This document shows, piece after piece, positions 1 through 58,753 of a stretch of 64,000 nucleotides of DNA. The stretch is taken from contig CBDFNQ010000038.1 in the NCBI GenBank assembly GCA_965250225.1, positions 118,851 to 182,850 of the forward strand, given 5' to 3'. The position numbers and the translations under genes are program-made. Positions within the stretch are counted from its first letter, which is position 1, and each line of letters begins with the position of its first letter. Source of the stretch: Gammaproteobacteria bacterium (GTDB lineage Bacteria > Pseudomonadota > Gammaproteobacteria > Eutrophobiales > Eutrophobiaceae). A model generated the notes under the pieces. That model saw only the letters and a program-made list of their open reading frames with translations, was not told the origin of the DNA and ran no database searches.

Positions 1-3000
1 GATTTCTTTTGCCGCACCTGCACTTCGTTGAGCAAGGTTACGAACTTCAGAAGCCACGACTGCAAAACCCCGTCCCTGTTCTCCGGCTCTCGCTGCTTCA
101 ACCGCTGCATTCAAGGCAAGTAGATTAGTCTGGAAAGCGATTTCGTCTATCACGCCAATAATATCCGCTATCTTTTTGCTTGATGAATTGATCTCACTCA
201 TGGCAGTTACCGCATTACTCACAACGGAGCCACCTTTTTCGGCGGTTTCCCTGGCGCTGTTCGCCAGTTGATTCGCTTGCCTGGCGTTATCGGCATTTTG
301 TTTCACCGTACCAGTCATCTCTTCTATCGTGGCAGCAGTTTCTTCCAGTGCCGATGCTTGTTGTTCAGTACGAGAACTTAGTTCCGTATTCCCTTGTACC
401 AGTTCCGTTGATGAGGTATCGATACTGCCTGACGAACTGCGTATTTCATTCACCATATTGAGCAAATTTGTGGAACTGGTATTGACGGCATCCTTCATCA
501 CGGCAAACTTGCCATGAAAATCACCATCCATTACCTGGGTCAGGTCACCATCAGCCAACGCCTCCATTACCCGTGTTCCTTCATTCACTGGCGTGACAAC
601 AGAATCGATTAAAGAATTAATCGAAGTCGCCAGGCTTTCCAGAAATCCTTCATATTTACTACTATCCAGGCGTTGTTCCAGGTCGCCTTTTCCTGCGGCC
701 TCAATCAAACTATTAATAGCACGCTCTGCTATTTTCTGTTCCGTTATGTCTTGCCATTCCACCATATTACCAGCGTAGTTTCCGTCCACATCAATAATGG
801 CCGTTGCATTAACACTGAAATCAAGTGGGCCCACATTAATTTCTGCCTTTGTCGGCAGGCTATTGACATCACTCAGTAATCGACGTTGATGAGCCGGATT
901 TTTATGGAATTGATCGATATTTTGACCCACCAGATTATTCACATCCAGGCTCGGCCAGATTGTTCGCAAATCGTTTTGACGATTTCGTAACATCTCGACC
1001 ACCGCTGGATTGGCATAGGTAATATTTAAGTCCACATCACAGATCATTAAATTTGTCTGAGCGCCATCTACCGCCGATTGCAGTCGTGCAACCTCGATAT
1101 TTTTTGCCCGTATCTCCGTCACATCTTCCCATTCCAGGGTATTACCGATGTAGTTACCTTGTGGGTCCATCTGTGCAGAGACTGTCAGGGCAAATTTTAA
1201 TTCTCTAATTTCAATGTCTGTTTTATAAGGCAGATTAGAAGGGTCCGCCAATAACTTACGTTGATGCTCCGGGTTCTTGTGGAACACATCAATACACGTA
1301 CCCATGACTCCTGCCACACTAAAGCTCGGACAGACTTCCTTAAATTTGCTTTCGTATCTCGTCAATAGCCCAACCGTTGCACCATTCACATAGGTGATGA
1401 TGAAATCACGGTCGATCATGATCATCGGTGACTGACAGCCATCAACGGCCACCTGTAAACGTGCTGATGCTATCTGTTGTTCACGTAATTCCGTACCGTC
1501 AGTTGCATATTTGACGACCTTGAAAGGATTACCATTCATGTCATAGATCGGGTTATAACTGGCATTCAACCATATCTCACTACCGTCTTTACCGATGCGA
1601 CGATATTGACCGGACTGATATTCTCCACTAGCTAATTTTTGCCAGAACTCTTTATATTCCGCACCCGCAACATACTCCGGATCGACAAACATGCTGTGGT
1701 GTTTACCCTTAATCTCTTCCAGGCTATAACCCACAGTATTAAGAAAATTATCGTTTGCTGTGATGATGGTACCATCAAGCTCGAATTCAATTGTTGCCTG
1801 TACCTTGTCGACTGCAGCCAACTTTCCTGAAAAATCGGCAAATTCCAGTTTTTGTGCGGTCACATCCGTGGCGTACTTCACTACTTTATAGGGCTTACCA
1901 TCAGTATCGAAGACCGGATTGTAAGAAGCGTTGATCCAGACTTCCTTACCGCCTTTACCGATGCGTTTGTATTCTTTCGCTTCGTATTCTCCGCGGTTTA
2001 AACTCGCCCAGAATTTTTTATATTCTGCACTCGCCTTGAACGCTTCATCTGCAAACATGCTGTGATGCTGACCCTGGACTTCTTCCAGTGTATAGCCCAG
2101 CGCATTTAGAAAATTGTCATTGGCTGTGATGATGGTGCCATCCATATTGAACTCAATCACCGCCTGTACTTTATCAATAGCATTTAATAAACCGGACTGC
2201 TCCTGAATTTTCTGTTTCAGTGCTTCCATATCGTTTGTCTCAGCATTCATCTCTAGTACCTCTACATTTTTAGTTTCTGATTTATCCGTTTTTGAATCTT
2301 TCATTTCGTTTACATCGTTTTCTTCATTCAAACTGTTTACATCTGACCCTTCATATGCTTCAAGCATGATGCCTGCCACTGTATTTAATGCATCACTCCA
2401 GGCCTCATGTACTTCGTCTGTCCAGGCATCACCAGCGAATTCCGCCATAACATCCAAAAGTACTGCTGCGACCGCACCGTAGTGCTCGGCCACTGCGCCA
2501 TACTTCTGATGGTTCTTTCCGAGGTTCGTCAGGGCGGGACCTAATACATCGGGCTTTCGCAGATTATTAATAACCAGCACCAGTGCCGACAGGAGTTTCT
2601 TCTCCTGCTCCTTCTGATCGGTATTCTTAAACAGGGGTTTAACACCCGGATGACGTTCGAATAACACCTCATAAAAGCGAGCAACCAATGCTTCGCCCTG
2701 TGGTGCCAGGGAATTGAAAGTGTCTTCCAAAAGACTAATTTTCAGACCCGGTTCTTCTGTATTCGTTTCTTGATTCATCGATTCATCCTCTGGTTCTTCA
2801 TAAGCATCAAGCATTATTTTCGCTACCGTGCTCAATGCATTACTCCATGCCTCATGAACTTCATCAGTCCAGGTATCACCAGCAAATTCCTGCATGACAG
2901 ATAATAATGTCTCTGCAACTGCCGGGTAATGTTCTGCTGTCGCACCATAGATTTTATGTTTGCGGCCTAATTCACCCAGTGCTTTTGCCAATATTTCTGG

Positions 3001-3210
3001 CCTTTTTAAACTGTTAATAACCATATTTAATCCGGCAGCTAGCTTTTTTTGCTGTTGTTTAGGATCAACATCTTTAAACAATGGTTTTACATCAGGATAT
3101 TTGGCAAACAACTCTTCATAAAAACGTTTCACTAATTCATCCAGGCTAGACGATAATGATGCAAACGTTGTTTGAAGAAGTTCTACATTTAATTCCGTTT
3201 CCTGGTTCAT
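1..3210 (-). CDS. Soluble globin-coupled methyl-accepting chemotaxis protein (tandem globin x2, PAS-like x4, HAMP, MCP signalling domain). Partial: 3' end beyond window start.
   Basis: Reverse complement of nt 1-100 encodes the MCP hallmark [31 protein letters not shown]. Minus-strand ATG at 3210 ([13 protein letters not shown]...). The first ~300 aa contain two homologous globin-like modules ([16 protein letters not shown]...[12 protein letters not shown] / [16 protein letters not shown]...[12 protein letters not shown]). Then come PAS modules ([17 protein letters not shown]..., [17 protein letters not shown]...) and two ~130-aa PAS-like repeats. No hydrophobic TM segment seen. No other long ORF exists in 1-3210. 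Confidence 0.85.
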
Positions 3211-3246
3211 AATTAATCTACCTGTTATAAATTTTATATAAAATAA

Positions 3247-3771
3247 CTAATGTTCAAGCTGCGAATCACCAACCATATCAATATCAATCAAATGATCGAC
3301 ATCAAGCAAGATCAACATCTTTTCATCAATGGTGGCTAATCCTTTAATAAACTGTGTATCAATTGAACTGCCAAACTCAGGGGATGCTTTCAATTGTTCT
3401 GGAGTCAGGTTGTATACTTCTGAAACAGCATCGACAACAAAACCCATGGTTCTTTCACCTTTTCCCGAATGTACATTCAAAACAATCACAACGGTCATAT
3501 TGTTATACTCGATCCTGGTTAGAGAAAACCGTGTGCGTAGATCAATAATCGGCACGATGGTGCCTCGCAGATTTATCACGCCTTGTACATATTCTGGAGT
3601 ATTCGGTATTTCTGTAGCGGGTTCCCAACCTTTTATCTCTTGTACGCGCAGAATATCAACGCCATATTCTTCATCCGCTAAAATAAATGTGAGAAACTGA
3701 TCGGTGTCTTTTTCATTATGATCTTCGACACCTATGTCATTCTGAATTTCCTGATTTGTTTCAGTTGTCAT
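3247..3771 (-). CDS. cheW: Chemotaxis coupling protein CheW
   Basis: 174-aa ORF with typical CheW fold sequence (FLTFILADEEYGVDILRVQEI...VQGVINLRGTIVPIIDLR). Operon position between cheA and the MCP. Confidence 0.9.
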   Translation of the reverse strand: MTTETNQEIQNDIGVEDHNEKDTDQFLTFILADEEYGVDILRVQEIKGWEPATEIPNTPEYVQGVINLRGTIVPIIDLRTRFSLTRIEYNNMTVVIVLNVHSGKGERTMGFVVDAVSEVYNLTPEQLKASPEFGSSIDTQFIKGLATIDEKMLILLDVDHLIDIDMVGDSQLEH

Positions 3772-3780
3772 TGTGATTCC

Positions 3781-5916
3781 TTATGCTGCTTCGGAATTAA
3801 CCGGCAGCGAATGTGGTTTTGATTTCGTATCAGAGAGTATTGGTAATTGTAGAGTGCTAGACATGTCCAAAATCAACGCCACTGTTCCATTGCCTAAGAT
3901 GGTTGCTCCAGAAACACCATCAACGCGTTGATAATTTGTTTCAAGACTTTTAATAACAACTTGTTGCTGCCCAAGTAAATCATCAACAAATATGGCAGCC
4001 TTCTGTCCATCCGCTTCAACAACCACCAATAAACCATCTGTTAATTTATTGTGTTTTGCTTCAACATCAAACACTTCATGTAAACGAACAATTGGGATAT
4101 ATTCATCCCGTAATCGATAGACATCACCTTTGCCTGGTAAACTGTTTATGTTATTTCCCTCTGCCTGTAAGGATTCAACGATAGAAACCAGAGGGATGAT
4201 ATAGGTCTGCTCACCAACCTGGACAAGTTGTCCATCCAGTATGGCTAATGTTAGTGGCAAACGAATACGGAAAGTTGAACCAACGCCTTCTTTGGATTTA
4301 ATCTCTACCACACCACCCAGGTCTTTGATGTTTCTCCGTACAACGTCCATCCCTACACCACGGCCTGATACATCACTGACTTCCTGTGCTGTTGAAAAAG
4401 CAGGCATGAAAATTAATTCATTGATTTTATCATCTGGCAGAATTTCATTTTCACCAACGATCCCTTTTTCACGTGCCTTGGCAAGAATACGTTCCTTATT
4501 CAGACCAGCACCATCATCAATGATCTCGATGACGATGTTGCCGCCCTCATGAAAAGCATTCAAATGTATGACACCCGTTTCTGGTTTTCCGGCCTTGACC
4601 CTGTCTTCCGGCATTTCGATGCCGTGATCCAACGAGTTGCGAACCAGATGAACCATTGGGTCGCCAATTTTTTCCATGACTGTTTTATCCAGCTCGGTTT
4701 GTTCACCAGATATTTTAAGTTCGATCTTTTTATTCAGTGTATTACTCAGATCCCTGACCAGACGTGGAAAACGATTAAACGAAAAGCTGATTGGCAACAT
4801 TCGTATCTGCAATACATTTTCCTGTATTTCACGTGTATTACGTTCAAGTAAATCCAGACCATCCTTTAATCTTTCAATATCAGCCTGGTCGAATGTTTCT
4901 TCTGCACCAAACTGACTCAACATGGATTGAGTGATAACCAGCTCACCTACCATATTGATTAATGTATCTATCTTTTCAATACCCACTCGAATAGATGTGC
5001 TTTCTGAATTCGAACGACGTTCTTTCGCTACTCGTCGGTCAGTACCTGAACGTTGTTCATTTTTTGCAACTTCAGCAACAGGCTGTGTGATTTCTGATGC
5101 TTTGATATCATTTTTTTCATCCAATTGTAAATCACTTTTCTCTTTCATAGATGTAGCATCAGAGACAGCATTTTCATCGAGCATTTTTTTCAATTCCAGA
5201 TCACAGTCACCCTCCACCCAATCAAATATTTCTGTGATTTTCTCTTCTTCTATATTTCCCTTCACCGTAATATCCCAGGATAAAAAAGATGATTCATAAT
5301 CCAAAGTATCAAAGCCAGGTAATTTTGAGTCATCCACAATGACTTCGATCTCACCAAGTCCTGATAATTCTGTGATTAATCTTAAGGGGTCATTTCCAGT
5401 GAGAAACATATTTTCATGTGGGATAAAACGGATAGACCATTGCTTGATTATTTCTTGCCTTTCAGAATCAACATCAGCAACATTTTCATCAATTGTTACA
5501 TCAGAAGCCTCTTCAGCAAGCAGGGTTTCAAGTGCCGTTTGTAATTCATTAATATCTGCCGTATCCAACTCTGCCTCATCACGTGTTGCTGAAAGCATAT
5601 TTCTCAGGCAATCGACAGATTGCAATAACAAATCAACGGATTTCTGACAAACATTGCGCTGACCTGCACGCATCTCATCCAACAAAGTTTCCAGGACATG
5701 AGTAAAACTGGCAATTGCAGTAAAACCAAAAGTGCCACTACCACCTTTGATAGAATGTGCTGCTCTAAAGATCGTGTTTATGGTCTCGACATCTGGCTCT
5801 CCGATATTGAGATCCAGTAAACCAGCTTCCATATCATCCAGGCCTTCAAAACTTTCTTCAAAAAAGACCTCATGAAATTGTGACATATCAACCGACATAG
5901 TTAGTTTTTCCTGCAA
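3781..5916 (-). CDS. cheA: Chemotaxis histidine kinase CheA (start possibly at internal Met, nt 5898)
   Basis: Hpt motif AAHSIKGGSGTFG near N-terminus, HATPase region (GRGVGMDVV), C-terminal CheW-like domain. 711 aa. Confidence 0.92.
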   Translation of the reverse strand: MQEKLTMSVDMSQFHEVFFEESFEGLDDMEAGLLDLNIGEPDVETINTIFRAAHSIKGGSGTFGFTAIASFTHVLETLLDEMRAGQRNVCQKSVDLLLQSVDCLRNMLSATRDEAELDTADINELQTALETLLAEEASDVTIDENVADVDSERQEIIKQWSIRFIPHENMFLTGNDPLRLITELSGLGEIEVIVDDSKLPGFDTLDYESSFLSWDITVKGNIEEEKITEIFDWVEGDCDLELKKMLDENAVSDATSMKEKSDLQLDEKNDIKASEITQPVAEVAKNEQRSGTDRRVAKERRSNSESTSIRVGIEKIDTLINMVGELVITQSMLSQFGAEETFDQADIERLKDGLDLLERNTREIQENVLQIRMLPISFSFNRFPRLVRDLSNTLNKKIELKISGEQTELDKTVMEKIGDPMVHLVRNSLDHGIEMPEDRVKAGKPETGVIHLNAFHEGGNIVIEIIDDGAGLNKERILAKAREKGIVGENEILPDDKINELIFMPAFSTAQEVSDVSGRGVGMDVVRRNIKDLGGVVEIKSKEGVGSTFRIRLPLTLAILDGQLVQVGEQTYIIPLVSIVESLQAEGNNINSLPGKGDVYRLRDEYIPIVRLHEVFDVEAKHNKLTDGLLVVVEADGQKAAIFVDDLLGQQQVVIKSLETNYQRVDGVSGATILGNGTVALILDMSSTLQLPILSDTKSKPHSLPVNSEAA

Positions 5917-5966
5917 GCGTTATGTAATCTGTATTCATTGATGTTGATTATTAATTTTGGAGGTGC

Positions 5967-6329
5967 TCAACCAATGACTTTTTTTATTGTATTTATTAAC
6001 TGATCGGGGTTAAACGGTTTTACCAGCCAGCCAGTAGCACCGGCTGCTTTACCTTCAGATTTTTTGTCGCCCGCTGTTTCAGTGGTTAACATCAACATAG
6101 GGATATGCTTGTAGTTGGGTAGTTTCCTCAGTTCCTTGATCAAGGTAATGCCGTCCATTATTGGCATGTTCACATCAGTTAAAACAATATCAGGAGTTGC
6201 AGATTGCGCCTTATTCAGGGCATCTTGCCCATCGACGGCCTCGATCACATTATAACCGGCCCCTTTCAGTGTAAAACTCACCATTTGTCTCATTGATGCC
6301 GAATCATCAACAGCTAATACAGTTGCCAT
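5967..6329 (-). CDS. cheY: Chemotaxis response regulator CheY
   Basis: 120 aa single REC domain (VLAVDDSASMR...DVNMPIMDG...LVKPF), first gene of the che operon. Confidence 0.9.
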   Translation of the reverse strand: MATVLAVDDSASMRQMVSFTLKGAGYNVIEAVDGQDALNKAQSATPDIVLTDVNMPIMDGITLIKELRKLPNYKHIPMLMLTTETAGDKKSEGKAAGATGWLVKPFNPDQLINTIKKVIG

Positions 6330-6370
6330 TTGTTATACTCCGATTGTTCAATCTTGATAGGTAAACTAAT

Positions 6371-6401
6371 ACATCGGCAGAAGAACGATTTACCTTTAAA
6401 G
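6371..6401 (-). promoter_or_regulatory. Putative sigma-28 (FliA) promoter for the che operon
   Basis: Minus strand reads cTTTAAAGgtaaatcgttcttctGCCGATGt. TAAAG/-35 and GCCGAT(AA)/-10 fit the FliA consensus TAAA-N15-GCCGATAA with spacing 16. Located ~40 nt upstream of cheY ATG. Confidence 0.35.
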
Positions 6402-6707
6402 TTTATTACTGATTTTATGGTTCAATAGCTCCACCCACTATTCAAAGCCATTGCTACCATTGTATTTATTGCTCTCTCGGCCAGACCCAGGACAACGCAT
6501 GAACTATACCAATTGTTCATCAGCTTGTTGGTGGCTTGTAAGTCATTGTATTTAATATATTTATTATTTTCAGATGATGGGTGTTTGGAAAACACGGGAT
6601 AAATTATTGCCAGGGTAAAGCGGCAATTTCGTCCTAATATTGCATGGGAAGCCACCCGGTTTTCTAGCTGTGAAAGACTCAATCGAATGTGTGTATAATG
6701 CTCGCCC

Positions 6708-7358
6708 ATGAAAAACCCCATTATGAAAACCTTGATAATTGTCCTGTTGCTAACCGCTTTTGGTGCTGGCCTGGGTATGTATTCTTCAAGCTATTACACA
6801 AGCAAGATAAACGCTGTGCCAGAAATCCAGGGCTTGATGTGGCCAAACCCGAAACAATTAAGGCCATTCGCCAGCATTAACCAGAGTGGTGATGTCTTTG
6901 GACTTGATAATTTGCAAGGCAAATGGTCGTTTATCTTTTTTGGCTACACCCATTGTCCGGATGTATGTCCGATCACTCTGAGCTTGCTGGATGATGTTCA
7001 TAAAAAAATGCAAGATAAGGGCATTAATGAAGACATACAGATTATTTTCATGACGGTCGATCCTGAACGAGATACGACAGAACTACTGAAAGACTATATT
7101 GAATACTTTAATACAGAATTTATTGCCCTTGGTGGCACCAAAGAGCAAGTGGAAAGCCTGACTCGACAAATTGGTATTGCCTATGCAAAAGCTGAAACTG
7201 GATCAGATAATGATTACCTCGTTGATCACAGTGCCTCGGTATTCTTGATCGGCCCCAAAGGACATCTTATTTCCGTTTTTTCTTCCCCCCACGATGCTAC
7301 CGATATCCTTAACCGTTTTATTGGCATAAAGGGATTTATTCAAAAACAAGACACATGA
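6708..7358 (+). CDS. SCO1/SenC family copper chaperone (thioredoxin-like, cytochrome oxidase assembly)
   Basis: N-terminal membrane anchor, CxxxC motif (HCPDVCP) and conserved downstream His (DHSASVF). Confidence 0.85.
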   Translation: MKNPIMKTLIIVLLLTAFGAGLGMYSSSYYTSKINAVPEIQGLMWPNPKQLRPFASINQSGDVFGLDNLQGKWSFIFFGYTHCPDVCPITLSLLDDVHKKMQDKGINEDIQIIFMTVDPERDTTELLKDYIEYFNTEFIALGGTKEQVESLTRQIGIAYAKAETGSDNDYLVDHSASVFLIGPKGHLISVFSSPHDATDILNRFIGIKGFIQKQDT

Positions 7359-7816
7359 AACAATATTTTATGCATGAAACAGTCACTGGACTCATACTGA
7401 TTTTTTTCACACTTTCAAGTCATGCAGCGAGTAACATTCAGATAAACAACGCCTGGATAAACGAAGCTCCACCGACCATGAAAATCCTGGCAGCTTATTT
7501 GACGATTGAAAACACCAGCAATAGCGATATTATTCTTGACAGGATTGAGAGCCCTGCATTTGAAACCGTAGAGATGCATCGTTCCATTGTTGAAGATGAT
7601 GTTGCAAGAATGATCAAACAAAATAACCTGTCGATTCAGGCAAATTCACAAACTGTTTTTGAACCCGGTGGGTTACATCTCATGTTGATTAATCCTGATT
7701 CAAGCAAAAAACAAGGTGATATAACAGCACTGATATTTTATTTTTCCGACGGTTCTATATTATCAGTGGATGCAATCGTTAAAAAAGCCTCTGACCAAAC
7801 GCTTCATCACCATTGA
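7355..7816 (+). CDS. Periplasmic copper chaperone PCu(A)C (DUF461)
   Basis: Signal peptide, Met/His copper motifs (VEMH ... GGLHLML), 4-nt overlap (ATGA) with the sco gene suggesting co-translation. Confidence 0.7.
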   Translation: MKQYFMHETVTGLILIFFTLSSHAASNIQINNAWINEAPPTMKILAAYLTIENTSNSDIILDRIESPAFETVEMHRSIVEDDVARMIKQNNLSIQANSQTVFEPGGLHLMLINPDSSKKQGDITALIFYFSDGSILSVDAIVKKASDQTLHHH

Positions 7817-7856
7817 AATAACATTATAGTTACTGCATAGACTAATTAATCCTTAT

Positions 7857-8714
7857 ATGTTCCAGTTTCTTAAAGTATTACCCCAGCATTTCATTCCACA
7901 ACATTTTTTAAGCAGTTTAATCTATAGATTGACACGTATACGTTGTAAATATTGGAAAAATTTTATTATCCGTCGGTTCATCACACTATTTCATGTTGAT
8001 ATGGGTAGTTCGATAAAAAAGACCACAGATGATTTTGAACATTTTAATGATTTTTTTACACGCGAATTACTCGCCGATGCACGGCCAGTAGAAGAAGGAA
8101 ATACTATGGTATCCCCTGTGGATGGATATCTGAGTCAATTCGGCAAGATAAAGAGCAATTCTCTTATCCAGGCCAAAAGGCGATATTTTACTCTAACGGA
8201 TTTACTTGCTGGCAATCAGGAAAGTGCAAATAAATTTATCGATGGTGATTTTTCAACTCTGTATCTTTCACCGAAGAATTATCACCGTATCCACATGCCT
8301 GTTAATGGCAGACTGATTAAAATGACCTATGTACCTGGAAGGTTATTTGCAGTAAACCAACATACCGCTCACGTTGTAAATAATTTGTTCGGTCGTAATG
8401 AACGAGTGATCATCGATTTTGAAACGGATATTGGTTCACTGTGTTTAATCATGGTCGGAGCAATCTTTGTCGGTAGTATGGATACTGTTTGGCACCAACA
8501 AATCACACCGGCCAGGAAAAGAGATATACAGCAATGGAACTACGATGATCAGTTAGCTGAAAATCAATTTAATAAAGGTGATGAGATAGGTCGATTTAAT
8601 ATGGGTTCGACAGTGATATTGCTATTTCAGAAAGACAAAGTGCAATGGAATGAAATACTGACTCATGATCAGGAGATAATTATGGGTCAACCACTGGCAA
8701 ATAATAAAGACTAA
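7857..8714 (+). CDS. psd: Phosphatidylserine decarboxylase proenzyme
   Basis: 285 aa. Conserved PSD motifs including the self-cleavage GST site (FNMGSTVIL) and YHRIHMP. Confidence 0.85.
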   Translation: MFQFLKVLPQHFIPQHFLSSLIYRLTRIRCKYWKNFIIRRFITLFHVDMGSSIKKTTDDFEHFNDFFTRELLADARPVEEGNTMVSPVDGYLSQFGKIKSNSLIQAKRRYFTLTDLLAGNQESANKFIDGDFSTLYLSPKNYHRIHMPVNGRLIKMTYVPGRLFAVNQHTAHVVNNLFGRNERVIIDFETDIGSLCLIMVGAIFVGSMDTVWHQQITPARKRDIQQWNYDDQLAENQFNKGDEIGRFNMGSTVILLFQKDKVQWNEILTHDQEIIMGQPLANNKD

Positions 8715-9424: not shown

Positions 9425-10873
9425 CTATGTGGAAAATACCCAGATACAGAGCGACATTAACGCGCCGGGCATGATGCCCAGAACCAAGATAGACAAACCA
9501 TTCACACTCATAATAAAACGGAACGTCCGACTTGCCTTGATAGCTGTTAATGCTTTTGCCTGATCAAAATATATTAACTTGACCACACGCAAATAATAAT
9601 ACGCGCCAATAATGGTAAAGAATACAGACAGTGCGGCCAACCATACCAGATCAGCCTGAACAACATCTTTTAAAACAAATAACTTAGCCCAGAAACCAAC
9701 AAAGGGTGGAACGCCTGCCAGTGAAAACATATAGATCAACATAATAAATGCGAACCAGGGATTCCGTTCAGATAATCCCCTGAAATCTTCCAGTTCATCC
9801 GCTTCAGCATCTTTTCTTCCCAGAATAATAATCATTCCGAACACACCGAGGGTCATCAAAGCATAGGTAATTGCGTAAAACATTGCATCAGCAAAACCGG
9901 AATAATCTGGTGCAGCAATTGAATCAAAGGACAATAAACCTAACAATAAAAAACCTACATGGGAGATAGTGGAATAGGCCAACATTCGTTTAATGTTGGT
10001 TTGTGCTATAGCAATAATATTTCCTAGTGCAATAGAGATAATAGCCAGAGCAATGAACACGGGTTGCCAATCATCGATCAATGGAAAAAACCCATCACCA
10101 AATAACCTAACCGCCATAGCAAAGGCAGCGACCTTTGGTGCTGTTGCTATAAAGAGCACGACTGCCGTTGGTGCCCCTTGATAAACATCGGGTACCCACA
10201 TATGAAAAGGAACAGCACCTAACTTAAATGCCATAGCAGCAATAATAAAAATCAAACCAAAGGTCAATAGTATGGATTCATTTTCCATGGCAGGTATTAT
10301 TTGGCTTATCTCAATTAAGGAAATACTGCCAGTCACACCATAGATAATAGAAATTCCATAAAGCAATAAACCTGAAGCGATCGCTCCCATGATGAAATAT
10401 TTCATCGCCGCTTCTGAAGCCATAGGAGAATCACGATGCATCGCCACCATGGCATAAAGTGACAATGACATTAATTCCAGACCTAGATAGATAGTTAATA
10501 AACTACCTGCAGAAGTCATTATCATCATGCCCAGCACAGAAAATAGACCTAAAATAAAATATTCGCCCTTAGTCCAGCCATGTTCCGACAAATAATCTTC
10601 TGCATAATAAAAAACCAGCATTACAATTAAGCAAATGATAATCTTTAAGCTGCCACTCATCGCATCACTAATGAACGTGTTATTAAATGCGTAGCTAGTC
10701 TGTTGGGGAAAGTCAAATAATATCAGAGTCGCTACCAGAGCAAGGGCTATTTCACAGGCGATAAATGTGACTCTGTTTTTAGTGGCTGTTTGAAAGCTGT
10801 CTATCACCAGTATTAAACAGGCAGAAGTCAATAACACTATCTCTGGGATCATTAATGCTAAATCTGTATACAT
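9425..10873 (-). CDS. nuoN: NADH-quinone oxidoreductase subunit N
   Basis: 482-aa polytopic membrane protein, last gene of nuo operon, antiporter-like subunit. Confidence 0.9.
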   Translation of the reverse strand: MYTDLALMIPEIVLLTSACLILVIDSFQTATKNRVTFIACEIALALVATLILFDFPQQTSYAFNNTFISDAMSGSLKIIICLIVMLVFYYAEDYLSEHGWTKGEYFILGLFSVLGMMIMTSAGSLLTIYLGLELMSLSLYAMVAMHRDSPMASEAAMKYFIMGAIASGLLLYGISIIYGVTGSISLIEISQIIPAMENESILLTFGLIFIIAAMAFKLGAVPFHMWVPDVYQGAPTAVVLFIATAPKVAAFAMAVRLFGDGFFPLIDDWQPVFIALAIISIALGNIIAIAQTNIKRMLAYSTISHVGFLLLGLLSFDSIAAPDYSGFADAMFYAITYALMTLGVFGMIIILGRKDAEADELEDFRGLSERNPWFAFIMLIYMFSLAGVPPFVGFWAKLFVLKDVVQADLVWLAALSVFFTIIGAYYYLRVVKLIYFDQAKALTAIKASRTFRFIMSVNGLSILVLGIMPGALMSLCIWVFST

Positions 10874-10876
10874 GAT

Positions 10877-12403
10877 TTAATTAAGCTTCCCAACAGCGGC
10901 ATGTTGTAATAAATTTTCTATTGTGGAATACATAACATCCATCATTGGTGCTGGCCATAGACCAAAAACTAAAACACATGCAGCCAACACAATTAATATC
11001 GTTTTTTCTCTGGAATTAATATCTTTGAGATGATTCACTTCATCATTATTAACGATTCCAAAAACAACCCGTTTGTACATCCACAATGTGTAAGCAGCAC
11101 CGAGTATTAAGGTCAAAGCCGCAAAAAATGCAATCCAGAAGTTCACCTGAAAACTACTGAGGATAACCAGAAATTCACCCACAAAGCCAGATGTTCCCGG
11201 CAGGCCAGCATTCGCCATTGAGAAAAACAACATCAACGCGGCAAATTTCGGCATGCTATTCACCACGCCGCCATAGGCACTGATATCACGACTGTGTATT
11301 CGATCGTATAACATACCAACACACAAAAACATTGCCGCTGAAATAAATCCGTGTGAGACCATTTGCACCATAGCACCCTGCATTGCAAGTACAGCTGGAT
11401 CAAAACTGTATTGATCGGATAATAATGCAAAGACGATAAAGATACCCAGGGTCACAAAACCCATATGTGAAATCGATGAATAAGCAATGAGTTTTTTCAT
11501 ATCCGTTTGCACAAGTGCAACAAAACCGATGTAGACAATCGCTATCAAGGACAGGACAATCAGAATATCAGCAAAGGCCATACTGGCATCCGGTGTGATT
11601 GGTACATTAAAACGCAAAAAGCCATAGCCACCGAGTTTTAACATTACAGCTGCAAGCACAACGGAACCCGCTGTTGGGGCCTCCACATGCGCATCTGGCA
11701 ACCAGGTATGCACCGGCCACATGGGTATTTTCACAGCAAAGGCTAAAAAGAAGGCGACAAAAATATATTGCTGTTCAATCAAAGACAAAGGCAAATCATG
11801 CAACTCAAGAATACTGAATGTATTACCCACTGAATAAAGATAAACAAATGCCACCAGCATGAATACTGAACCCATGAAGGTATACAAAAAGAATTTAATC
11901 GTTGCATAGACTCTATTCGGCCCACCCCAGATGCCAATGATTAAAAACATCGGGATTAACAATGCTTCCCAGTAGACGTAAAAAAGGATCAAATCGAGCG
12001 AGGCAAACACACCATTCATACAACCCGCCAATATTAAAAATAACGCCATAAATTGCGCAGCATTTTTTTCGACGACGTCCCAGGCAGACCATAAAGCCAA
12101 AATCGTAATTAGATTATTCAGCAGGACCATTAATAAGGAAATACCATCAATACCCAAGTGGTAATTAATATTAAAGGCACTGATCCAGGGTGATAATTCG
12201 GTAAATTGCATCTGATGACTTGTCGCATCAAACAACATGTACATATGAATAGATAACGCGAAGACAAACAGACTTAGGATCAAGGCTAAATATTTAGCTG
12301 TTGATACCTGTCGTTTACCCGCATAAAAAACCCAAACACCTCCGAGTATTGGCGTCCAGATCAGTAAACTGAGAAAAGGAATATTGATCGCTGGAGTTAT
12401 CAT
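10877..12403 (-). CDS. nuoM: NADH-quinone oxidoreductase subunit M
   Basis: 508-aa antiporter-like subunit, operon position. Confidence 0.9.
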   Translation of the reverse strand: MITPAINIPFLSLLIWTPILGGVWVFYAGKRQVSTAKYLALILSLFVFALSIHMYMLFDATSHQMQFTELSPWISAFNINYHLGIDGISLLMVLLNNLITILALWSAWDVVEKNAAQFMALFLILAGCMNGVFASLDLILFYVYWEALLIPMFLIIGIWGGPNRVYATIKFFLYTFMGSVFMLVAFVYLYSVGNTFSILELHDLPLSLIEQQYIFVAFFLAFAVKIPMWPVHTWLPDAHVEAPTAGSVVLAAVMLKLGGYGFLRFNVPITPDASMAFADILIVLSLIAIVYIGFVALVQTDMKKLIAYSSISHMGFVTLGIFIVFALLSDQYSFDPAVLAMQGAMVQMVSHGFISAAMFLCVGMLYDRIHSRDISAYGGVVNSMPKFAALMLFFSMANAGLPGTSGFVGEFLVILSSFQVNFWIAFFAALTLILGAAYTLWMYKRVVFGIVNNDEVNHLKDINSREKTILIVLAACVLVFGLWPAPMMDVMYSTIENLLQHAAVGKLN

Positions 12404-12406
12404 GTC

Positions 12407-14389
12407 TTAAACAAAGATTCTATGTACAAACACAGCCAGTAACACCAGTAAACCAAGGATCATAACAAAGACATAATCGTATAAATATCCTGTTTGCATT
12501 CTGCGGATAATTCCTGAAAACCAACGAACACTCAGAGCCGAACCATTCACCAGTAAACCATCAATTAATCTGGCATCACCAAAAACCCATAAATATTTTC
12601 CAGCACCGCGCGCGCCTTTAGCAAATACAAATTGATACAGATCATCAAAACCGTACTTATTGTCAAGCAAGGTATGTATCCATTTGAAACGCTTCATTAG
12701 AATTGCAGGAAGAGCGGTGTTAATACTGTAGCAATACCAGGCTATGACAAATCCAGTCGTCAATAATGTCAGTATTAACGGTGATTGAAAGCTATGTAAA
12801 ATTAAGGAGAATGGACCATGATATCCTTCGGCAAGGCCTGCCAGAACATTATGCTCTGACATGACATAAATACTTGAACCAAAATAGCCTTCGAACAATA
12901 ATGGCCCAACTGCTATATAACCTAGTATTAATGAAGGAATGGCCAAAGCAATTAATGGAATTAATACAACAGCCGGGGATTCATGCAAATGTTTCCATGC
13001 CTCATTGTCTATTCTTTCCTTCCCATGAAACACCAGAAAGAATAAACGGAAACTGTAGAGTGCTGTGACAACGACACCAATTAATAATGAGTAGTAGGCA
13101 AAATTAGCAGCGGGCAATGTCGAATGATGTACCGCTTCAATGATCATATCTTTGGAAAAGAAACCAGAAGTTCCCGGAAAACCAATCAAGGCCAATGTCC
13201 CAACTAGGCAGGTTATCCAGGTGATTGGCATATAGCGATACAGACCACCCATTTTTCGCATGTCCTGGACATGATGCATACCGATAATCACGGAACCTGC
13301 TGCGAGGAATAACAGGGCTTTAAAAAACGCGTGGGTAAATAGATGAAACATTGAAGCGGCATAGGCTGAAGCACCAAGAGCAACCGTCATGTAGCCAAGC
13401 TGTGACAAAGTCGAATAGGCAATCACACGCTTGATGTCATTTTGAACAATCCCCAGAAAGCCCATAAATAACGCAGTGATCGAACCAATGATCAAAATAA
13501 AATTCAGTGCAAATTCAGATAATTCAAACAAAGGTGACATCCGTGTAACCATGAAGATGCCTGCCGTCACCATGGTTGCAGCATGAATCAGGGCAGAGAT
13601 AGGTGTTGGGCCTTCCATTGAATCCGGTAACCAGACATGCAATGGTATTTGTGCGGATTTCCCCATTGCACCAATGAATAAACAAATACAAATCACTGTC
13701 ATCACCGACCATGATTCACCTTCCATGATGCGTATTGTCGCGTGCTCAAGCAGCGGTGCTTTCTCAAACACCAGCGCATAATCCAAAGTATTAAAATACA
13801 TAAACACAGCAGCAATACCGAGCAAGAAGCCGAAGTCGCCAACTCGATTCACCAGGAATGCCTTTAAATTGGCAAATATAGCCGATTCTTTTTGATGCCA
13901 AAAGCCGATCAATAAATAAGAAACCAGGCCAACGGCTTCCCAACCAAAAAATAATTGAACAAAGTTGTTTGCCATCACCAGCATTAACATGGCAAAAGTA
14001 AATAAGGATATGTAAGAGAAGAAACGATTATAACCAGGATCGTCGTGCATATAACCAATGGTATAAATATGCACCATTAAAGAGACAAAATTCACAACCA
14101 TCATCATGCTGATAGATAGATTATCGAGAAGGAAACCGATCTGGAATGTTACATCATGGCTCTGCATCCAGTGATAGACTGTAACATTCAAACTACCCTG
14201 TTCTGTCAATACAAGCTGTTGAAATAAATAAAAGGACAATAAAGTTGAGATGCTGACACCAAGAATGGTTATCCAGTGTGCAGCTGCGCGACTGATTAAA
14301 CCTCCACCCAGACCAACAATTGTTGCACCAACTAATGGTGCAAGCACAATAATCAATGCAATCGTGGCAAAATCCTGCATCATACTCAT
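12407..14389 (-). CDS. nuoL: NADH-quinone oxidoreductase subunit L
   Basis: 660-aa antiporter-like subunit with C-terminal extension, operon position. Confidence 0.9.
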
Positions 14390-14691
14390 CCCTTTAGTGC
14401 ATCCATATCTTCAACGTTAATTGTATTATGTTGTCGAAACAGGACAACAAGAATGGCCAGGCCAATAGCCGATTCTGCAGCAGCAACGGTTAAAACAAAA
14501 AACACAAAAACCTGTCCGGTAATGTCAGCGTGAAAATAGGAAAAGGCAATGAAATTTATATTCACTGCTAACAACATTAACTCTATACACATCAATAACA
14601 CGATTAGATTTTTTCGATTGATGAAAATTCCAGCCACACTGATACAAAAAAGAATCGCGCCTAAAATAAGAACTTCAGATAAATTCAGCAT
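14386..14691 (-). CDS. nuoK: NADH-quinone oxidoreductase subunit K
   Basis: 101-aa three-TM protein, 4-nt overlap with nuoL. Confidence 0.9.
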
Positions 14692-14693
14692 AA

Positions 14694-15293
14694 CTATTCC
14701 TGTTTTTCTGTTGGCATATTCACCAATCTGACTCTTTCTTTCGGATCAACCGCAACCTGTTGATCCGGATTTTGTTTTTTACTGGCTTTTCGATCGCGAA
14801 ATGTCAAAGAGATCGCCGCAATAATAGCAACCAGCAATATGGCTCCTGCGATCTCAAAGGGATATAAATAATTTGTGTATAGATCAAGTCCTAAAATTTC
14901 AGTGTTACTGAGTTCGGTCTGGGAAAGAAATCGACTCTGATTCAAATCGGAAAAGTATTCATTTTTTAAAACCACTGCCATTGCAACAGACATTAATACA
15001 GCAACTAATATACCTATGGGTAGATAACGAGCAAATCCTTCACTGATCTTTGCTAAATTGATATCTATCATCATTACAACAAAGAGGAATAGGACCATCA
15101 CCGCGCCGACGTAAACCAGAACTAGAGTGATAGCCAAAAATTCTGCCTGTAGTAAAAGCCATATTCCTGAACAAAAGAAAAACGACAACACCAGAAATAA
15201 TGCTGCATACACAGGATTACGTACAACAATCACCATCGATGAAGAAAATATCAGCAGTGCGGAAAATATATAAAAGAGTGTGTGTTCAATCAT
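14694..15293 (-). CDS. nuoJ: NADH-quinone oxidoreductase subunit J
   Basis: 199-aa membrane protein, operon position. Confidence 0.85.
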
Positions 15294-15359
15294 TCGTTAT
15301 TTATATTTCAATATACATGGATTTAATATTTTTATACTTGGCTATTCTCTATTTTTTAA

Positions 15360-15848
15360 TTATCGATACAGTGCTTCGCGTGCTCGATCTTCAGCTATCT
15401 GTTGTTCAGCTCTGTCACCATTTTCCAGTAATTTTTCTTTAGTCATCAATAAATCTCCCCGATTTTCTCCATGGTATTCATAAATCCGTGTTTCCACTAT
15501 CGAATCAACTGGGCAGGATTCTTCACAAAAACCGCAAAAGATGCATTTGGTTAAATCAATGTCATAACGAGTGGTTCTGCGACTACCATCTTCACGCTGC
15601 TCTGATTCAATCGTGATTGCCACTGCAGGACAAACCGCTTCACATAATTTACAGGCGATACAACGTTCTTCGCCATTCGGATATCGTCTTAATGCGTGCA
15701 AGCCACGAAAACGCGAAGACTGCGGTGTTTTTTCCTCTGGATATTGAACAGTTACTTTTGCTTTGAATAAATGTTGTCCTGTTAGTTTAAGTCCTTTTAA
15801 TAATTCCCAAAGAAATAAACTTTTAAAATATTGCTTCATCGCGTTCAT
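15360..15848 (-). CDS. nuoI: NADH-quinone oxidoreductase subunit I (2x[4Fe-4S] ferredoxin)
   Basis: Two CxxCxxCxxxCP motifs ([24 protein letters not shown]). Confidence 0.92.
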
Positions 15849-15867
15849 AATTTATTACTCAGGATGC

Positions 15868-16956
15868 TCACGAATTAAACCACGGTGGTAACTGAAACAA
15901 CACCATCAACGCAACGACTACCAACCAGACAATGGTAATGGGAATAAATATCTTCCAGCCTAAACGCATGATTTGATCATAACGATAACGTGGAAAGGTC
16001 GCGCGGAACCAGAGAAAGAAAAACAAGACCATGGATATTTTCAGTAACAACCAAAAAATACTCGGTGCCCCCAGGTAAGGAACAAAATCCGGAAAAGGTG
16101 ATAACCAACCACCAAAAAACATAATTGCTGTCAACGCTGAAACAATGATCATGTTGGCGTATTCGGCCATAAAGAAAACAGAAAAGGCCATGCCACTGTA
16201 CTCAACATGAAAGCCAGCCACAATTTCAGACTCACCTTCTGCCACATCAAAAGGGGCACGATTGGTTTCTGCCACACCCGAAATAAAATAGATCAATAAC
16301 AAAGGTAGCAACGGCAGGAAAAACCAATGCATGAACCAGCCACTCTGTGCACGCACAATATCACCCAGGTTCAAACTGCCAGCGGCGATCAAAACACCAA
16401 CCAGTGCAAAACCCATGGCGATCTCATAAGAGACAATTTGCGCTGCCGAACGTAAAGCCCCCAGAAAGGCATACTTTGAGTTAGAAGCCCAACCTGCAAT
16501 AATAACTCCATAAACCGCCAATGAGGTTAATGCAAGCACATACAATAGTCCGGCATTGATATCTGCCAACACCATATAGCCATTAAACGGAATAGCAGCC
16601 CAGGCTGCCAATGAGGGCGCTAATGATAAAATTGGCGCAATAATAAACAACGTCTTGTTTGCACCACTAGGGATCACAATCTCTTTAAAAATTAATTTAA
16701 CCGCATCTGCAATTGGTTGCCCAAGTCCCCAAAACGATATACCAAAAAATCCAACGCGATTGGGTCCAATGCGTGATTGTATATATCCAATCACTTTACG
16801 TTCAGCATAAGTTAAATAGGCCACACATAACAATAGTGGCATCACTATCAAGAGAATTTTAATGACCGTCTCTATGGTATAGCTGGCATAAAGATGTATG
16901 GATTCGGGAAACAACCATTGTACTGGTTTATCGATGATATCCTGGATTAAATCCAT
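15868..16956 (-). CDS. nuoH: NADH-quinone oxidoreductase subunit H
   Basis: 362-aa polytopic membrane protein, ND1 homolog, operon position. Confidence 0.9.
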
Positions 16957-19127
16957 TAATATTTTCCTTCACGTATCTGTAAGGACTCAGCTCTGCGAGA
17001 CATAGGATCAATGTCATAGGAAGACATTAAGGGCATTTCAATCGGCGCAGCTTTAACGTTACTGGTATCGTCGGAAGAAGGCAGCGTTGTAAAATTGTCT
17101 GCAGTGATCGATTTAACGCGCGGTAATAATTCTGCTTGTATTTCTTCAAGTGTGTTTTGCTCAAATCCCTTTAGCTGTAATTGCTCTCCAAGCGCTCTTA
17201 TTATTTTCCAACCCTGTTTAATTTCATCAGAGGCCGTTACCAATTTTTTAAAACTCTGGATAACACCTTCGATATTTACAAAGCTGCCTTCATTTTCGGC
17301 AAAAAGTGCCATTGGTAATAGAACGTCAGAACTATCGAGTAATTGCGAATTTTCATACGCGCTGAATGAGAGAACAAAATCAGATTGTCTCAAGGCACTG
17401 ATAGCAATGTCAGAACTTAATAAATCATTTTCGGGTTCAATATGAAATAAGAGATAACTCTTGAGATTGTTTTCAAACATTTGTCGTGCGTGCATTCCAT
17501 CTACTGATGATACCTCACCTGAAAGTAGTCTATGTGGCACAGCTCCGGCCAACCATGCACCTGAAGCATTTGCACCCTCAGTCAAATAGCCAAATTGAAT
17601 GTCACATTGTCCTGCTAATGCATTAGCTAACAAACAGATTGATGAATACTGTTGATGCGAGGCAGCATGTGAACCTATCAAAACGATACCTTTATCAGCT
17701 TTTAATAACTCTTCAGCAATTGTTTTATGTTGTTGATCAACTTTGACTGATTTTATGAGTTTTTCAATTGGCTTTACTATTGGTGTATCTGTTGTTTCAT
17801 AGATAACCGCAGTAATTGCCGCCAGCTGATCCAGCAACTCGGATGCACTGCAGATGATCTCGTTGTTAATCGTATAATTAAAATCAATCCGTTGATGATC
17901 CAGCAACATCATAGTTGCGCCTTTCAATGCAGCTTTACGCAAGCGATGATTGATCATCGGTTGTTCATAACGAACATGACTGCCAATCAGAAAAACAGCA
18001 TTCATATCTTCCAGTTCTTCGATAGAACAACCGAGAGAGGGGAATATAGGTGCATTGCTATCGCCACGAAAATCTTGTTGTTTCAATCGATGATCAATAT
18101 TGTTTGAACCTAATGCTCGCATCATATTTTGTAATAGATACATTTCTTCGAGAGTGGCAGAGGGAGAAATAAGTGCCCCGATAGCCTCTCCAGCATGATC
18201 CGATTTGATCTTGCTCAAACCCGAAGCTGCAAATGCCAATGCGTCCTCCCAACTGGCTTGTTTCCACTGCCCATTGTCTTTTATCTTTGGGTGTAACAAA
18301 CGATCATCCGAATACAAGGCCTCATAACTGAAACGATCGCGATCCGATATCCAGACTTCATTTATTGCCTGATTTTCTGCTGGAACAACACGTTTGATTT
18401 CATTTTCTTTAAAATGAACTTCAACATTTGAACCAACGCAATCATGTGGCGCGATCCCCCTGCCCTGTTTCATTTCCCATGCACGGGCAGAAAAACGAAA
18501 GGGTTTTGAAGTTAAGGCACCCACCGGACAAACATCAATAATGTTGCCAGATAATTCAGATGACATGCTTTTTTCTATATAGGTGCCAATCTGCATATGT
18601 TCACCACGGCCAGTCGCACCCAGTTCCCTTAAACCTGCAATCTCTTCACCAAAACGAATACAACGTGTGCAATGAATACAACGAGTCATTTCTGTTTGTA
18701 CCAATGAGCCAATGTTTTTATCTTTTACAACACGTTTACTTTCCTGATATCGAGACACATCCCGCCCATAACCCATGGCCAGATCCTGTAACTCACACTC
18801 ACCACCCTGATCACAGATAGGACAATCGAGCGGGTGATTGATCAATAAAAATTCCATGACACCTTTTTGTGATTCAAGTGCGCTCGCTGATTGGGTTTTT
18901 ACCACCATTCCTTCGTTCACTGGCGTTGCACAGGCAGGCAAAGGCTTTGGTGCCTTTTCAACCTCGACCAGACACATGCGGCAATTAGCAGCCACGGATA
19001 ATTTCGGGTGATAACAAAAACGCGGGATATAGATATCATTCGCATCCGTCACCTCGATCAACATCTGCCCTCGTTGTGCCTCAAGGGTCTTGCCATCTAC
19101 TTCGATTGTTATCTTATCCTCTGACAT
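16956..19127 (-). CDS. nuoG: NADH-quinone oxidoreductase subunit G (75 kDa Fe-S subunit)
   Basis: N-terminal 2Fe-2S and 4Fe-4S cysteine clusters ([18 protein letters not shown]..., [20 protein letters not shown]), molybdopterin-oxidoreductase-like C-terminus. 723 aa. Confidence 0.92.
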
Positions 19128-19181
19128 AATTAAATATTTTTATAATCATTTGTCATTTCACTTTTTACTATTCCCTATTGT

Positions 19182-32224: not shown

Positions 32225-32310
32225 TGGTGCCGATGGCCGGAGTCGAACCGGCACGCCGTTAAGGCACTACCCCCTCAAGATAGCGTGTCTACCAATTCCA
32301 CCACATCGGC
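32225..32310 (-). tRNA. tRNA-Leu (anticodon GAG)
   Basis: Minus-strand sequence GCCGATGTGGTGGAATTGGTAGACACGCTATCTTGAGGGGGTAGTGCCTTAACGGCGTGCCGGTTCGACTCCGGCCATCGGCACCA. 7-bp acceptor stem, D-arm GTGG/AATTGGTAG, anticodon loop TTGAGGG (GAG), long variable arm (class II), T-arm GGTTCGACTCC, encoded CCA. Near-identical architecture to E. coli tRNA-Leu. Confidence 0.9.
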
Positions 32311-58634: not shown

Positions 58635-58753
58635 ATGACATGCTGGCGATATATTTAGTCGGATCTGGCTGACCAACCTTATATATCGTCAGAAAATATA
58701 AAAACTTGAATGTTCTCGAAAGAGATGAAGCCCTGTTCCCTATTCTCTTTTAA

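Follow-up and report, generated by a model that had tools for sequence, protein, structure and literature searches.

A predicted Aer2-family chemoreceptor with two N-terminal globins of the Vitreoscilla haemoglobin type, and related globins on chemotaxis proteins of uncultured Gammaproteobacteria

In this study we describe a chemoreceptor encoded at one end of a 64,000-nucleotide stretch of DNA (the window) from a gammaproteobacterium of the Eutrophobiaceae (contig CBDFNQ010000038.1). The protein carries two tandem globins, two PAS domains of the type found in Aer and MmoS, two further PAS domains of the haem type known from Aer2, a di-HAMP region and a chemotaxis signalling domain. Its sequence makes us highly confident that the receptor belongs to the Aer2 family and that its domains are assigned correctly. 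The globins belong by sequence and predicted fold to the M/F family, the type of Vitreoscilla haemoglobin (Vgb) and the flavohaemoglobins (FHb), and not to the sensor globins of HemAT. What is new here is an Aer2-family receptor with N-terminal M/F-family globins and Aer-type PAS domains, a combination that we did not find described. We also found related globins on the coupling protein CheW and on the kinase CheA of relatives.

A single open reading frame (ORF) fills positions 1..3210 of the window on the minus strand, starting with an ATG at 3210-3208, and 1070 of its codons are visible. The window edge cuts it just past the tip of the signalling hairpin, so that the C-terminal arm lies outside. 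We used the orthologue at locus L001 as a proxy for the missing 3' end; this protein has 1060 amino acids (aa), 153 of them past the equivalent point, and from it we estimate a full length of about 1220 aa. Pfam recognises two Globin domains (PF00042, aa 29-132 and aa ~175-278), two PAS_3 domains, two weaker PAS_8/PAS_9 repeats, HAMP_2 and the methyl-accepting chemotaxis protein (MCP) signalling domain, MCPsignal, with E 1e-39 over profile positions 2-91 of 172. No transmembrane helix was found in the receptor: the highest Kyte-Doolittle mean of any 19 residues is 1.3, and we therefore regard it as soluble. The modules form homologous pairs with amino acid identities of 57-59% between the globins (G1 and G2), 65% between the PAS_3 domains (PASa and PASb) and 45% between the PAS-haem domains (PH1 and PH2). 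The parts of the receptor are as follows.

1..3210, minus strand: receptor ORF, 1070 aa visible
2776..3210, minus strand: globin 1 (aa 1-145); Pfam Globin, match to PDB 3WFW, AlphaFold2 (AF2) fold
2353..2775, minus strand: globin 2 (aa 146-286); Pfam Globin, alignment to 1VHB
2209..2352, minus strand: acidic polar linker of 48 aa from globin 2 to the first PAS domain; composition
1837..2208, minus strand: PASa (aa 335-458), PAS_3, Aer/MmoS-like and putatively binding flavin adenine dinucleotide (FAD); Pfam and structure-sequence matches
1465..1836, minus strand: PASb (aa 459-582), PAS_3, same type as PASa; Pfam and structure-sequence matches
1087..1464, minus strand: PAS-haem 1 (aa 583-708), Aer2 type; NCBIfam Aer2, alignment to PaAer2
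697..1086, minus strand: PAS-haem 2 (aa 709-838), core PAS joined directly to di-HAMP; matches to 3VOL, 4HI4 and 6CEQ
406..696, minus strand: di-HAMP region (aa 839-935); HAMP_2 (E 3.6e-13) and contiguous NCBIfam Aer2 match
1..405, minus strand: MCP signalling domain, N-terminal arm and hairpin tip (aa 936-1070); MCPsignal

A sequence-only reading of the same DNA had already described a soluble chemoreceptor with two homologous N-terminal globin modules, and it had placed four PAS modules, HAMP and the signalling domain in the order that Pfam now returns. Its four PAS modules stand, but it overlooked that the last two are Aer2 PAS-haem domains and that the first two are of the Aer/MmoS FAD type.

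The evidence for the Aer2 family comes mainly from the C-terminal half. Among whole-protein models the NCBIfam model of Aer2 (NF041847) was by far the best, with 695 bits on the truncated window protein, and receptor residues 566-1070 match model positions 148-654 contiguously. The full-length orthologues at L001 and L002 align to the model from end to end with 857 and 865 bits. The equivalog cut-off of this model is 1200 bits, and these proteins are therefore better called homologues of Vibrio Aer2 than its equivalogs. For PH2, structure-sequence matches include the PAS domain of PaAer2 (3VOL, E 7.7e-28; also 4HI4) and VcAer2 (6CEQ). By alignment, the residues of PaAer2 to look for are H234, the haem ligand, W283, which stabilises O2, and D285xT287, the coupling motif. 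Their counterparts are Eeta-His644, Ibeta-Trp694 and D696-x-T698 in PH1, where the Hbeta residue is Leu, and Eeta-His769, Ibeta-Trp819 and D821-x-T823 in PH2, where it is Val. The histidine of the FHKNP motif in PH2 thus corresponds to His234 of PaAer2 and the tryptophan of EW.D.T to Trp283. We also aligned 42 PAS-haem sequences with MAFFT (the PaAer2 reference, the two window domains and 39 domains of relatives), and the Eeta-His, the Ibeta-Trp and the Thr of DxT are present in all of them. At the Hbeta 'Leu' position the set has Leu, Val or Ile, with Val in most core domains.

The Aer2 core, in the definition of Watts and co-workers, is a PAS-haem domain with a di-HAMP and kinase-control module directly attached; it is enough for VvAer2 and LiAer2 to signal O2, and additional N-terminal haem domains modulate it (PMC10107281). 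Judged by these alignments, PH2, the di-HAMP region and the signalling domain of our receptor make up such a core, preceded by a second Aer2 PAS-haem. With this match a known O2-sensing unit is already present in the receptor, and the globins are an N-terminal add-on. The C-terminal end could be read in the orthologues. Those at L001-L005 end in SEWEEF/SEWDEF pentapeptides, like VvAer2, and the alignments of the two from L001 and L002 to a model of E. coli Tar, a class 36H receptor, have no large indels, which is consistent with class 36H for the orthologues. Class 36H and a C-terminal x-[HFYW]-xx-[HFYW] pentapeptide are features of Aer2-like receptors of the F7 chemosensory system (PMC7184735).

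The two PAS_3 domains point in another direction. Their nearest solved relatives are MmoS (3EWK, E 2e-12 for PASa and 4e-12 for PASb) and E. coli Aer (8DIK, E ~1e-9). The Falpha tryptophan is kept as Trp401 in PASa and Trp523 in PASb, both aligned to the DMW tryptophan of MmoS and Aer, and His383 of PASa aligns to the His of GQDHR in MmoS and His505 of PASb to that of GQPHN in Aer. By our own numbering of the alignment to Aer, the positions of Arg57 and His58 are occupied by Val and Asp in PASb and that of Asn85 by Ser. According to a 2023 census the Falpha Trp is the primary FAD determinant of PAS domains (PMC10468136). Because the secondary contacts are only partly conserved, FAD binding by PASa and PASb is plausible and no further, and from the sequence we would put the chances at about even.

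Both N-terminal modules are globins. Scanned separately against Pfam Globin they gave E 3.9e-17 (G1) and 8.8e-17 (G2), or 63 and 62 bits, and the motif quoted in the sequence-only reading, FYE[EV]LF..P.VKPLF...KH.KYGA.AEHY, is essentially right in both. That reading had named, as grounds for its own rejection, repeats that are not globin-like or the lack of a conserved proximal histidine in both modules; neither was observed, and both modules came out as globins with His-F8. Its comparison with the sensor globin of HemAT was not borne out. Protoglobin (PF11563), with a cut-off of 25 bits, scored 14.5 and 19.4 bits on the two modules, and no HemAT, globin-coupled sensor (GCS) or protoglobin stood among the 60 of 69 sequence matches listed at E<=0.01, the 60 of 91 listed at E<=10 or the top 50 fold matches. 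On Pfam scores, sequence matches and fold matches together we rejected the S-family (HemAT/protoglobin) class. The nearest solved sequences among the matches listed were instead Methylacidiphilum infernorum HGbRL (3WFW, E 2e-21), HGb-I, Vitreoscilla haemoglobin and flavohaemoglobins. The best named globin model was the NCBIfam flavohaemoprotein Hmp, of which only the globin part, positions 7-137, was matched; the Hmp class itself was rejected, as FAD_binding_6 and NAD_binding_1 gave no matches and there is no C-terminal reductase module.

We placed the haem pocket by residue-by-residue alignment to Vitreoscilla haemoglobin (1VHB). G1 has Tyr31(B10), Phe45(CD1), Gln53(E7), Lys56(E10), Leu57(E11), His85(F8) and Tyr95(G5); G2 has Tyr180(B10), Phe194(CD1), Gln202(E7), Lys205(E10), Leu206(E11), His234(F8) and Tyr244(G5). 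Across 39 aligned members of the clade Tyr-B10, Phe-CD1, Gln-E7, Leu-E11, His-F8 and Tyr-G5 are invariant and Lys-E10 is present in at least 90%, and G1 keeps all 13 clade-invariant residues (columns read on G2, with the G1 equivalents at an offset of 149). A non-haem globin of the RsbR or photoglobin type was ruled out, because His-F8 and the entire pocket are invariant. An AF2 model of aa 1-298 had a mean predicted local distance difference test score (pLDDT) of 90.2 and showed two distinct 3/3 globin folds, with residues 145-153 between them as a linker of low confidence; the pLDDT also falls at the C-terminal end of the model. The best single-domain match in Foldseek was HGb-I (3S1I, TM-score 0.92, root-mean-square deviation 1.1 A), followed by Vgb, FHb and neuroglobin, and the best matches of the whole model were engineered di-alpha haemoglobins. 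Alignment and model thus agree that both modules are 3/3 globins of the Vitreoscilla haemoglobin/flavohaemoglobin (M/F-family) type with a predicted complete haem pocket, and it is quite likely that both bind haem.

The segments that join the globins differ from those within the PAS region. The inter-globin and globin-PAS linkers measure 22 and 48 aa, are ~75-82% polar and acidic and vary among relatives, and the 48-aa linker between globin 2 and PASa (75% polar, net charge -8) is probably flexible. The PAS-PAS connectors of the receptor are amphipathic and 17 aa long. The junction of G1 and G2 holds a further feature: a Shine-Dalgarno-like GAGGA at 2786-2790 (minus strand) stands 7 nt before the in-frame ATG of Met145 (2776-2778), and both globins begin with MNQET (MNQETELN in G1), with 13 of 15 nucleotides identical. 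It might be possible that GAGGA and this ATG form a live internal start, which would yield a one-globin isoform, or the fossil start of a once separate gene. In relatives an acidic '..ED..-M(S/N)' motif was seen at the globin-PAS boundary; it may be a fossil ribosome-binding site and start left by gene fusion.

All globin-bearing loci that we found come from metagenome-assembled genomes (MAGs) or metagenomes of uncultured Gammaproteobacteria, and GTDB representatives reach only 68-72% identity. The databases annotate these proteins merely as "methyl-accepting chemotaxis protein", "globin domain-containing protein" or "CheW". In at least 12 loci we found Aer2 receptors with a single globin, followed by 0-2 PAS_3 domains, 1-7 Aer2 PAS-haem domains, di-HAMP and the MCP domain. 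The longest series stands in the 1485-aa receptor of L005 (9911-14368), with one globin and seven tandem Aer2-type PAS-haem domains, all with the haem His and the Trp, where the described maximum is three. L001 has the architecture of the window receptor except that the first globin is a separate ORF of 147 aa, 44 nt upstream and in another frame. In L037, the closest relative found (its PASa is 90.5% identical to that of the window), a CheW-globin fusion precedes a receptor that begins globin-PASa-PASb; CheW-globin and a globin-Aer2 receptor follow each other likewise in L038 and L039, and the receptor alone bears a globin in L002, L003, L004 and L040.

Between cheW and the receptor gene there is thus a recurrent second globin, fused to CheW (L037-L039), free (L001) or fused to the receptor, the last in the window only. 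Searches of GTDB representative genomes, of a set of 5.8 billion proteins and of metagenomes of the Joint Genome Institute (JGI), the last scanned with junction-specific peptides, turned up no second receptor that bears two fused globins, in keeping with the sequence-only reading, which had set the tandem against the single globin of known HemAT-type transducers. The nearest case to the tandem is an ORF at the receptor position of L034 (P0001, 8001-9505) with at least three tandem globins, truncated where the contig stops. The syntenic position of G1 agrees with orthology to the CheW-fused or free globins of relatives, but a neighbour-joining tree sets G1 apart on its own longer branch, with G2 grouping with the globins of L001-L004.

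The same globin clade also occurs on CheW. It is fused to the C-terminus of CheW in 22 of 68 homologues, in one or two copies, and once (P0040) it stands in the reverse order, N-terminal to CheW. The CheW-globin genes lie at 6193-7215 in L037, 8001-8969 in L038 and 2015-2989 in L039, with others among P0006-P0052; several are directly upstream of a globin-Aer2 receptor, and P0009 (CheW-globin-globin) is an orphan, with no che cluster around it. In L034 an 871-aa CheA (P0039, 4068-6683) has a globin inserted in the P1-P3 linker, between the Hpt and dimerisation domains. The clade also includes stand-alone triple-globin proteins of 442-487 aa, P0002 (L035, 2883-4211), P0003 and P0004. P0002 adjoins a gene for a truncated globin (Bac_globin) outside a che cluster, and P0004 comes from a cyanobacterial MAG.

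In the window the receptor follows three chemotaxis genes on the same strand, in the order cheY-cheA-cheW-receptor with gaps of 50, 9 and 36 nt.

3247-3771, minus strand: cheW (174 aa), here without a globin; Pfam CheW, E 1e-37
3781-5916, minus strand: cheA (711 aa) with Hpt, dimerisation, HATPase and CheW-like domains; Pfam
5967-6329, minus strand: cheY (120 aa), first gene of the operon; Pfam

The receptor gene, which the sequence-only reading had put at the head of the che operon, is in fact the fourth. That reading also took it to encode the sole receptor of the local set. No other MCP signalling domain was found within the 64-kb window, yet such a claim cannot be made, because the downstream part of the cluster is outside the window and a second MCP-signal gene lies beyond cheB in orthologous clusters. 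In the orthologues the genes downstream of the receptor are ParA-STAS-cheR-cheD-cheB in L001, where the whole cluster reads cheY-cheA-cheW-globin-receptor-ParA-STAS-cheR-cheD-cheB, and cheR-cheD-cheB in L038. Gene order suggests that the cluster is probably of the Che2/F7-like kind, cheY-cheA-cheW-receptor with cheR-cheD-cheB to follow as in the orthologues. In L001 the two additional genes (13765-14959), which separate the receptor gene from cheR, encode a ParA/MinD-like ATPase (AAA_31) and a protein with a STAS domain, and in L034 STAS is found upstream of cheY and ParA after cheW; they may be an array-positioning system.

A promoter and terminator scan of positions 1-7000 gave nothing above shuffled expectation. 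An ORF upstream of cheY (6422-6721, minus strand, 99 aa) is probably spurious, having no Pfam match and overlapping the start of SCO1. Divergent from the che operon, at 6708-8714 on the plus strand, are genes for SCO1/SenC, a PCuAC copper chaperone and phosphatidylserine decarboxylase; L037 shares this gene order, and L001 has ORFs that are similar in size. SCO1 and PCuAC chaperones serve the assembly of haem-copper oxidases. A complex I (nuo) operon follows at 9425-20501 (minus strand), with same-strand ORFs on to ~24000; the subunits scanned include NuoN/M/L-like antiporter subunits, NuoJ, NuoH, NuoG and NuoF. Further along, an ORF of 1935 aa (52869-58676, minus strand) has DUF4347, 12 FG-GAP-like repeats and several cadherin-like/Big_9 domains, and these domains identify it as a putative large surface or adhesin-type protein. 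The window has a single tRNA gene, for tRNA-Leu(GAG), at 32225-32310 (minus strand), and its GC content is 42%.

When compared with known systems, the receptor is closest to the Aer2 receptors PaAer2/McpB (PA0176), VcAer2 (VCA1092) and the tri-PAS-haem VvAer2. It shares with them its soluble nature, the Eeta-His, Ibeta-Trp and DxT of its PAS-haem domains, the presence of several of these in tandem, the core PAS placed directly on a di-HAMP and kinase-control module, the EWEEF-type pentapeptide (in the orthologues) and the place of the gene after cheY-cheA-cheW and before cheR-cheD-cheB, the downstream part again from orthologues. Described Aer2 receptors, in contrast, carry N-terminal HAMP, PAS-haem or periplasmic domains and neither globins nor Aer-type PAS_3, and their systems differ from the L001 cluster with its inserted ParA-like and STAS genes. 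With HemAT and other GCS proteins the receptor has in common an N-terminal globin with His-F8 and Tyr-B10, a soluble MCP and presumed gas sensing; unlike HemAT, it has Pfam Globin and not Protoglobin domains, two globins in place of one and a separate PAS-haem sensor, and where HemAT has a short direct linkage, ~650 aa with four PAS domains, di-HAMP and the 48-aa linker lie between globin 2 and the signalling domain.

The globins themselves share the 3/3 fold without a D helix and the residues Tyr-B10, Gln-E7, Lys-E10 and Leu-E11 with HGbRL, HGb-I, Vgb and FHb. In HGbRL an M-type globin is also fused to a putative signalling domain. FHb differs by its reductase; HGbRL differs by its Roadblock/LC7 domain, whereas the globins described here occur on chemotaxis proteins and in tandem copies, and in the AF2 model the window globins have separate E and F helices, unlike the site-swapped dimer of HGbRL. 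Like the FAD-PAS domains of Aer and MmoS, which they resemble, PASa and PASb have the Falpha Trp. AerC of Azospirillum, also a soluble receptor, has a tandem pair of FAD-PAS domains ahead of its MCP domain, but in the window receptor the PAS_3 pair is an internal segment of a larger protein, Arg57 and His58 of Aer are not kept, and FAD binding is putative. The nearest published idea is Cc_4972 of Corallococcus coralloides, described in silico as PAS, Bac_globin and MCPsignal (PMC6194562). It too is a cytoplasmic MCP, predicted to join PAS and a globin outside the sensor family, in a dedicated che cluster; it differs in its truncated 2/2 globin (PF01152) in single copy, in its lineage and in that no Aer2 core has been described for it. 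In the literature, including reviews of aerotaxis receptors and of F7 systems, we found no fusions of Globin (PF00042) with Aer2, CheW or CheA, although globin censuses in subscription journals could mention them.

Taken as a whole, the explanation that we favour with reasonable confidence is a soluble Aer2-family receptor whose PAS-haem core signals O2 and whose tethered globins modulate the signal. In this scheme O2 would bind the haem of the last PAS domain, PH2, held by His769 and stabilised by Trp819, and O2-bound PH2 would shift the DxT loop and so relieve the inhibition of the kinase-control module by di-HAMP, a route established by experiment for PaAer2, VcAer2 and VvAer2 (PMC10107281). 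PH1 would modulate the core response, as VcPAS1 and VvPAS2 do (PMC10107281), and PASa and PASb might add a flavin redox or energy input, as in Aer and AerC. The globins would bind haem b through His85 and His234 and serve as flexibly tethered, probably high-affinity O2/NO (nitric oxide) modules that bias the output of the receptor or the array. Their effect may run via a Lys(E10)/helix-E switch as in HGbRL, where Lys-E10 reversibly ligates the haem and drives a large movement of helix E (PMC4476040). That the globins are signal modulators, and not accessory enzymes or buffers, is a tentative part of this explanation; the N-terminal sensory position, the exclusively signalling fusion partners, the conserved Lys-E10 and the lack of a reductase in the clusters favour it.

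Several points weigh against this explanation. Tyr-B10/Gln-E7 pockets are typical of globins of the NO-dioxygenase type, with slow O2 release. The globin linkers are long, ~75-82% polar, acidic and variable in length, and therefore a rigid helical transmission of the PAS-PAS kind is disfavoured. The globin clade is found at both ends of the array, on the receptor N-terminus and at the baseplate on CheW and CheA, which is hard to reconcile with one conformational mechanism. Close full-length orthologues, with their 857 and 865 bits, stay under the 1200-bit cut-off of the Aer2 equivalog. Cofactor binding and O2 response of globin-Aer2 members are predicted from sequence, and the 3' end of the receptor gene lies outside the window. 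Finally, the output of the ancestral F7 system is unknown, so that 'aerotaxis' is not established (PMC7184735).

Some of these points would fit the globins being accessory haem proteins tethered to the array, acting as a local NO dioxygenase or scavenger, as an O2 buffer or store, or as a protector of the PAS-haem iron. Fusion to whichever neighbouring array protein would then simply keep them near the F7 array, and this agrees with flexible, acidic linkers of variable length and with a clade that occurs on the C-terminus of CheW (22 cases), on its N-terminus (P0040), inside CheA (P0039, L034), free (L001) and as triple globins (P0002-4). A pocket of Tyr-B10, Gln-E7 and Leu-E11 is also that of Vgb, FHb and HGb-I, and the flavohaemoprotein Hmp is the best named model. 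However, the clusters examined contain no reductase domain or gene, and therefore no obvious electron source for sustained NO-dioxygenase turnover. Every fusion partner is a signalling protein, the globin takes the N-terminal sensory position in at least 12 receptors, and Lys-E10, the switch residue of HGbRL, is conserved, and we hold an accessory role to be unlikely. A HemAT-like arrangement, where the two tandem globins would be the primary O2/NO detectors and drive the MCP domain through a PAS/HAMP relay, is very improbable. It is true that an MCP signalling domain is preceded by an N-terminal globin that has a proximal His and a distal Tyr-B10, and the broad definition of a GCS as an N-terminal globin plus output domain applies formally; but the globins are of the M/F and not the S family, with a phylogenetic place inside the FHb/SDgb (single-domain globin) clade already indicated, and a complete Aer2 core of the kind sufficient for O2 signalling in VvAer2 and LiAer2 (PMC10107281) stands between them and the output.

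The fused tandem itself might not be the functional product, either through an assembly or sequencing error at the G1-G2 junction or through translation mainly from Met145. The separate first globin of L001, 44 nt upstream in another frame as a 147-aa ORF, the CheW-fused one of L037, the closest relative found, and the lack of a second fused example in the GTDB representatives, the 5.8-billion protein set and the JGI metagenomes would all agree with this, as would the GAGGA 7 nt before the Met145 ATG and the MNQET at both N-termini. On the other hand, no break interrupts the reading frame and none of the 13 clade-invariant residues is missing from G1, fusion and fission of globins with neighbouring genes is clearly natural and recurrent in the family, and at the receptor position of L034 at least three globins stand in tandem in one ORF. 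Hence we consider it quite improbable that the tandem is an artefact or a largely untranslated fusion.

Returning to globins as modulators of an Aer2 receptor, a wider and doubtful, though possible, extension is that the Vgb-like clade is a portable haem input module of F7/Aer2 arrays, carried by receptor, CheW or CheA, and that the window receptor combines globin haem, flavin PAS and PAS haem for a band-pass response to O2, NO and redox state. If so, the baseplate could be a point of entry for gas signals into the array, next to the receptors. Aer2 receptors serve as the model of gas sensing by PAS-haem domains, and their variable N-termini are thought to tune the O2 response; to our knowledge, the N-terminal regions studied so far comprise only HAMP, PAS-haem and one periplasmic domain. 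The receptor and its relatives put an unrelated second haem fold and a flavin-type PAS on the same signalling wire. Globin-Aer2 receptors thus offer a natural system for the integration of several gas and redox inputs by one chemoreceptor. The same globin on receptor, CheW or CheA is Rosetta-stone evidence for an M-family haemoglobin that works physically within chemosensory arrays, and such fusions challenge the textbook view that reserves sensing for the S-family globins.

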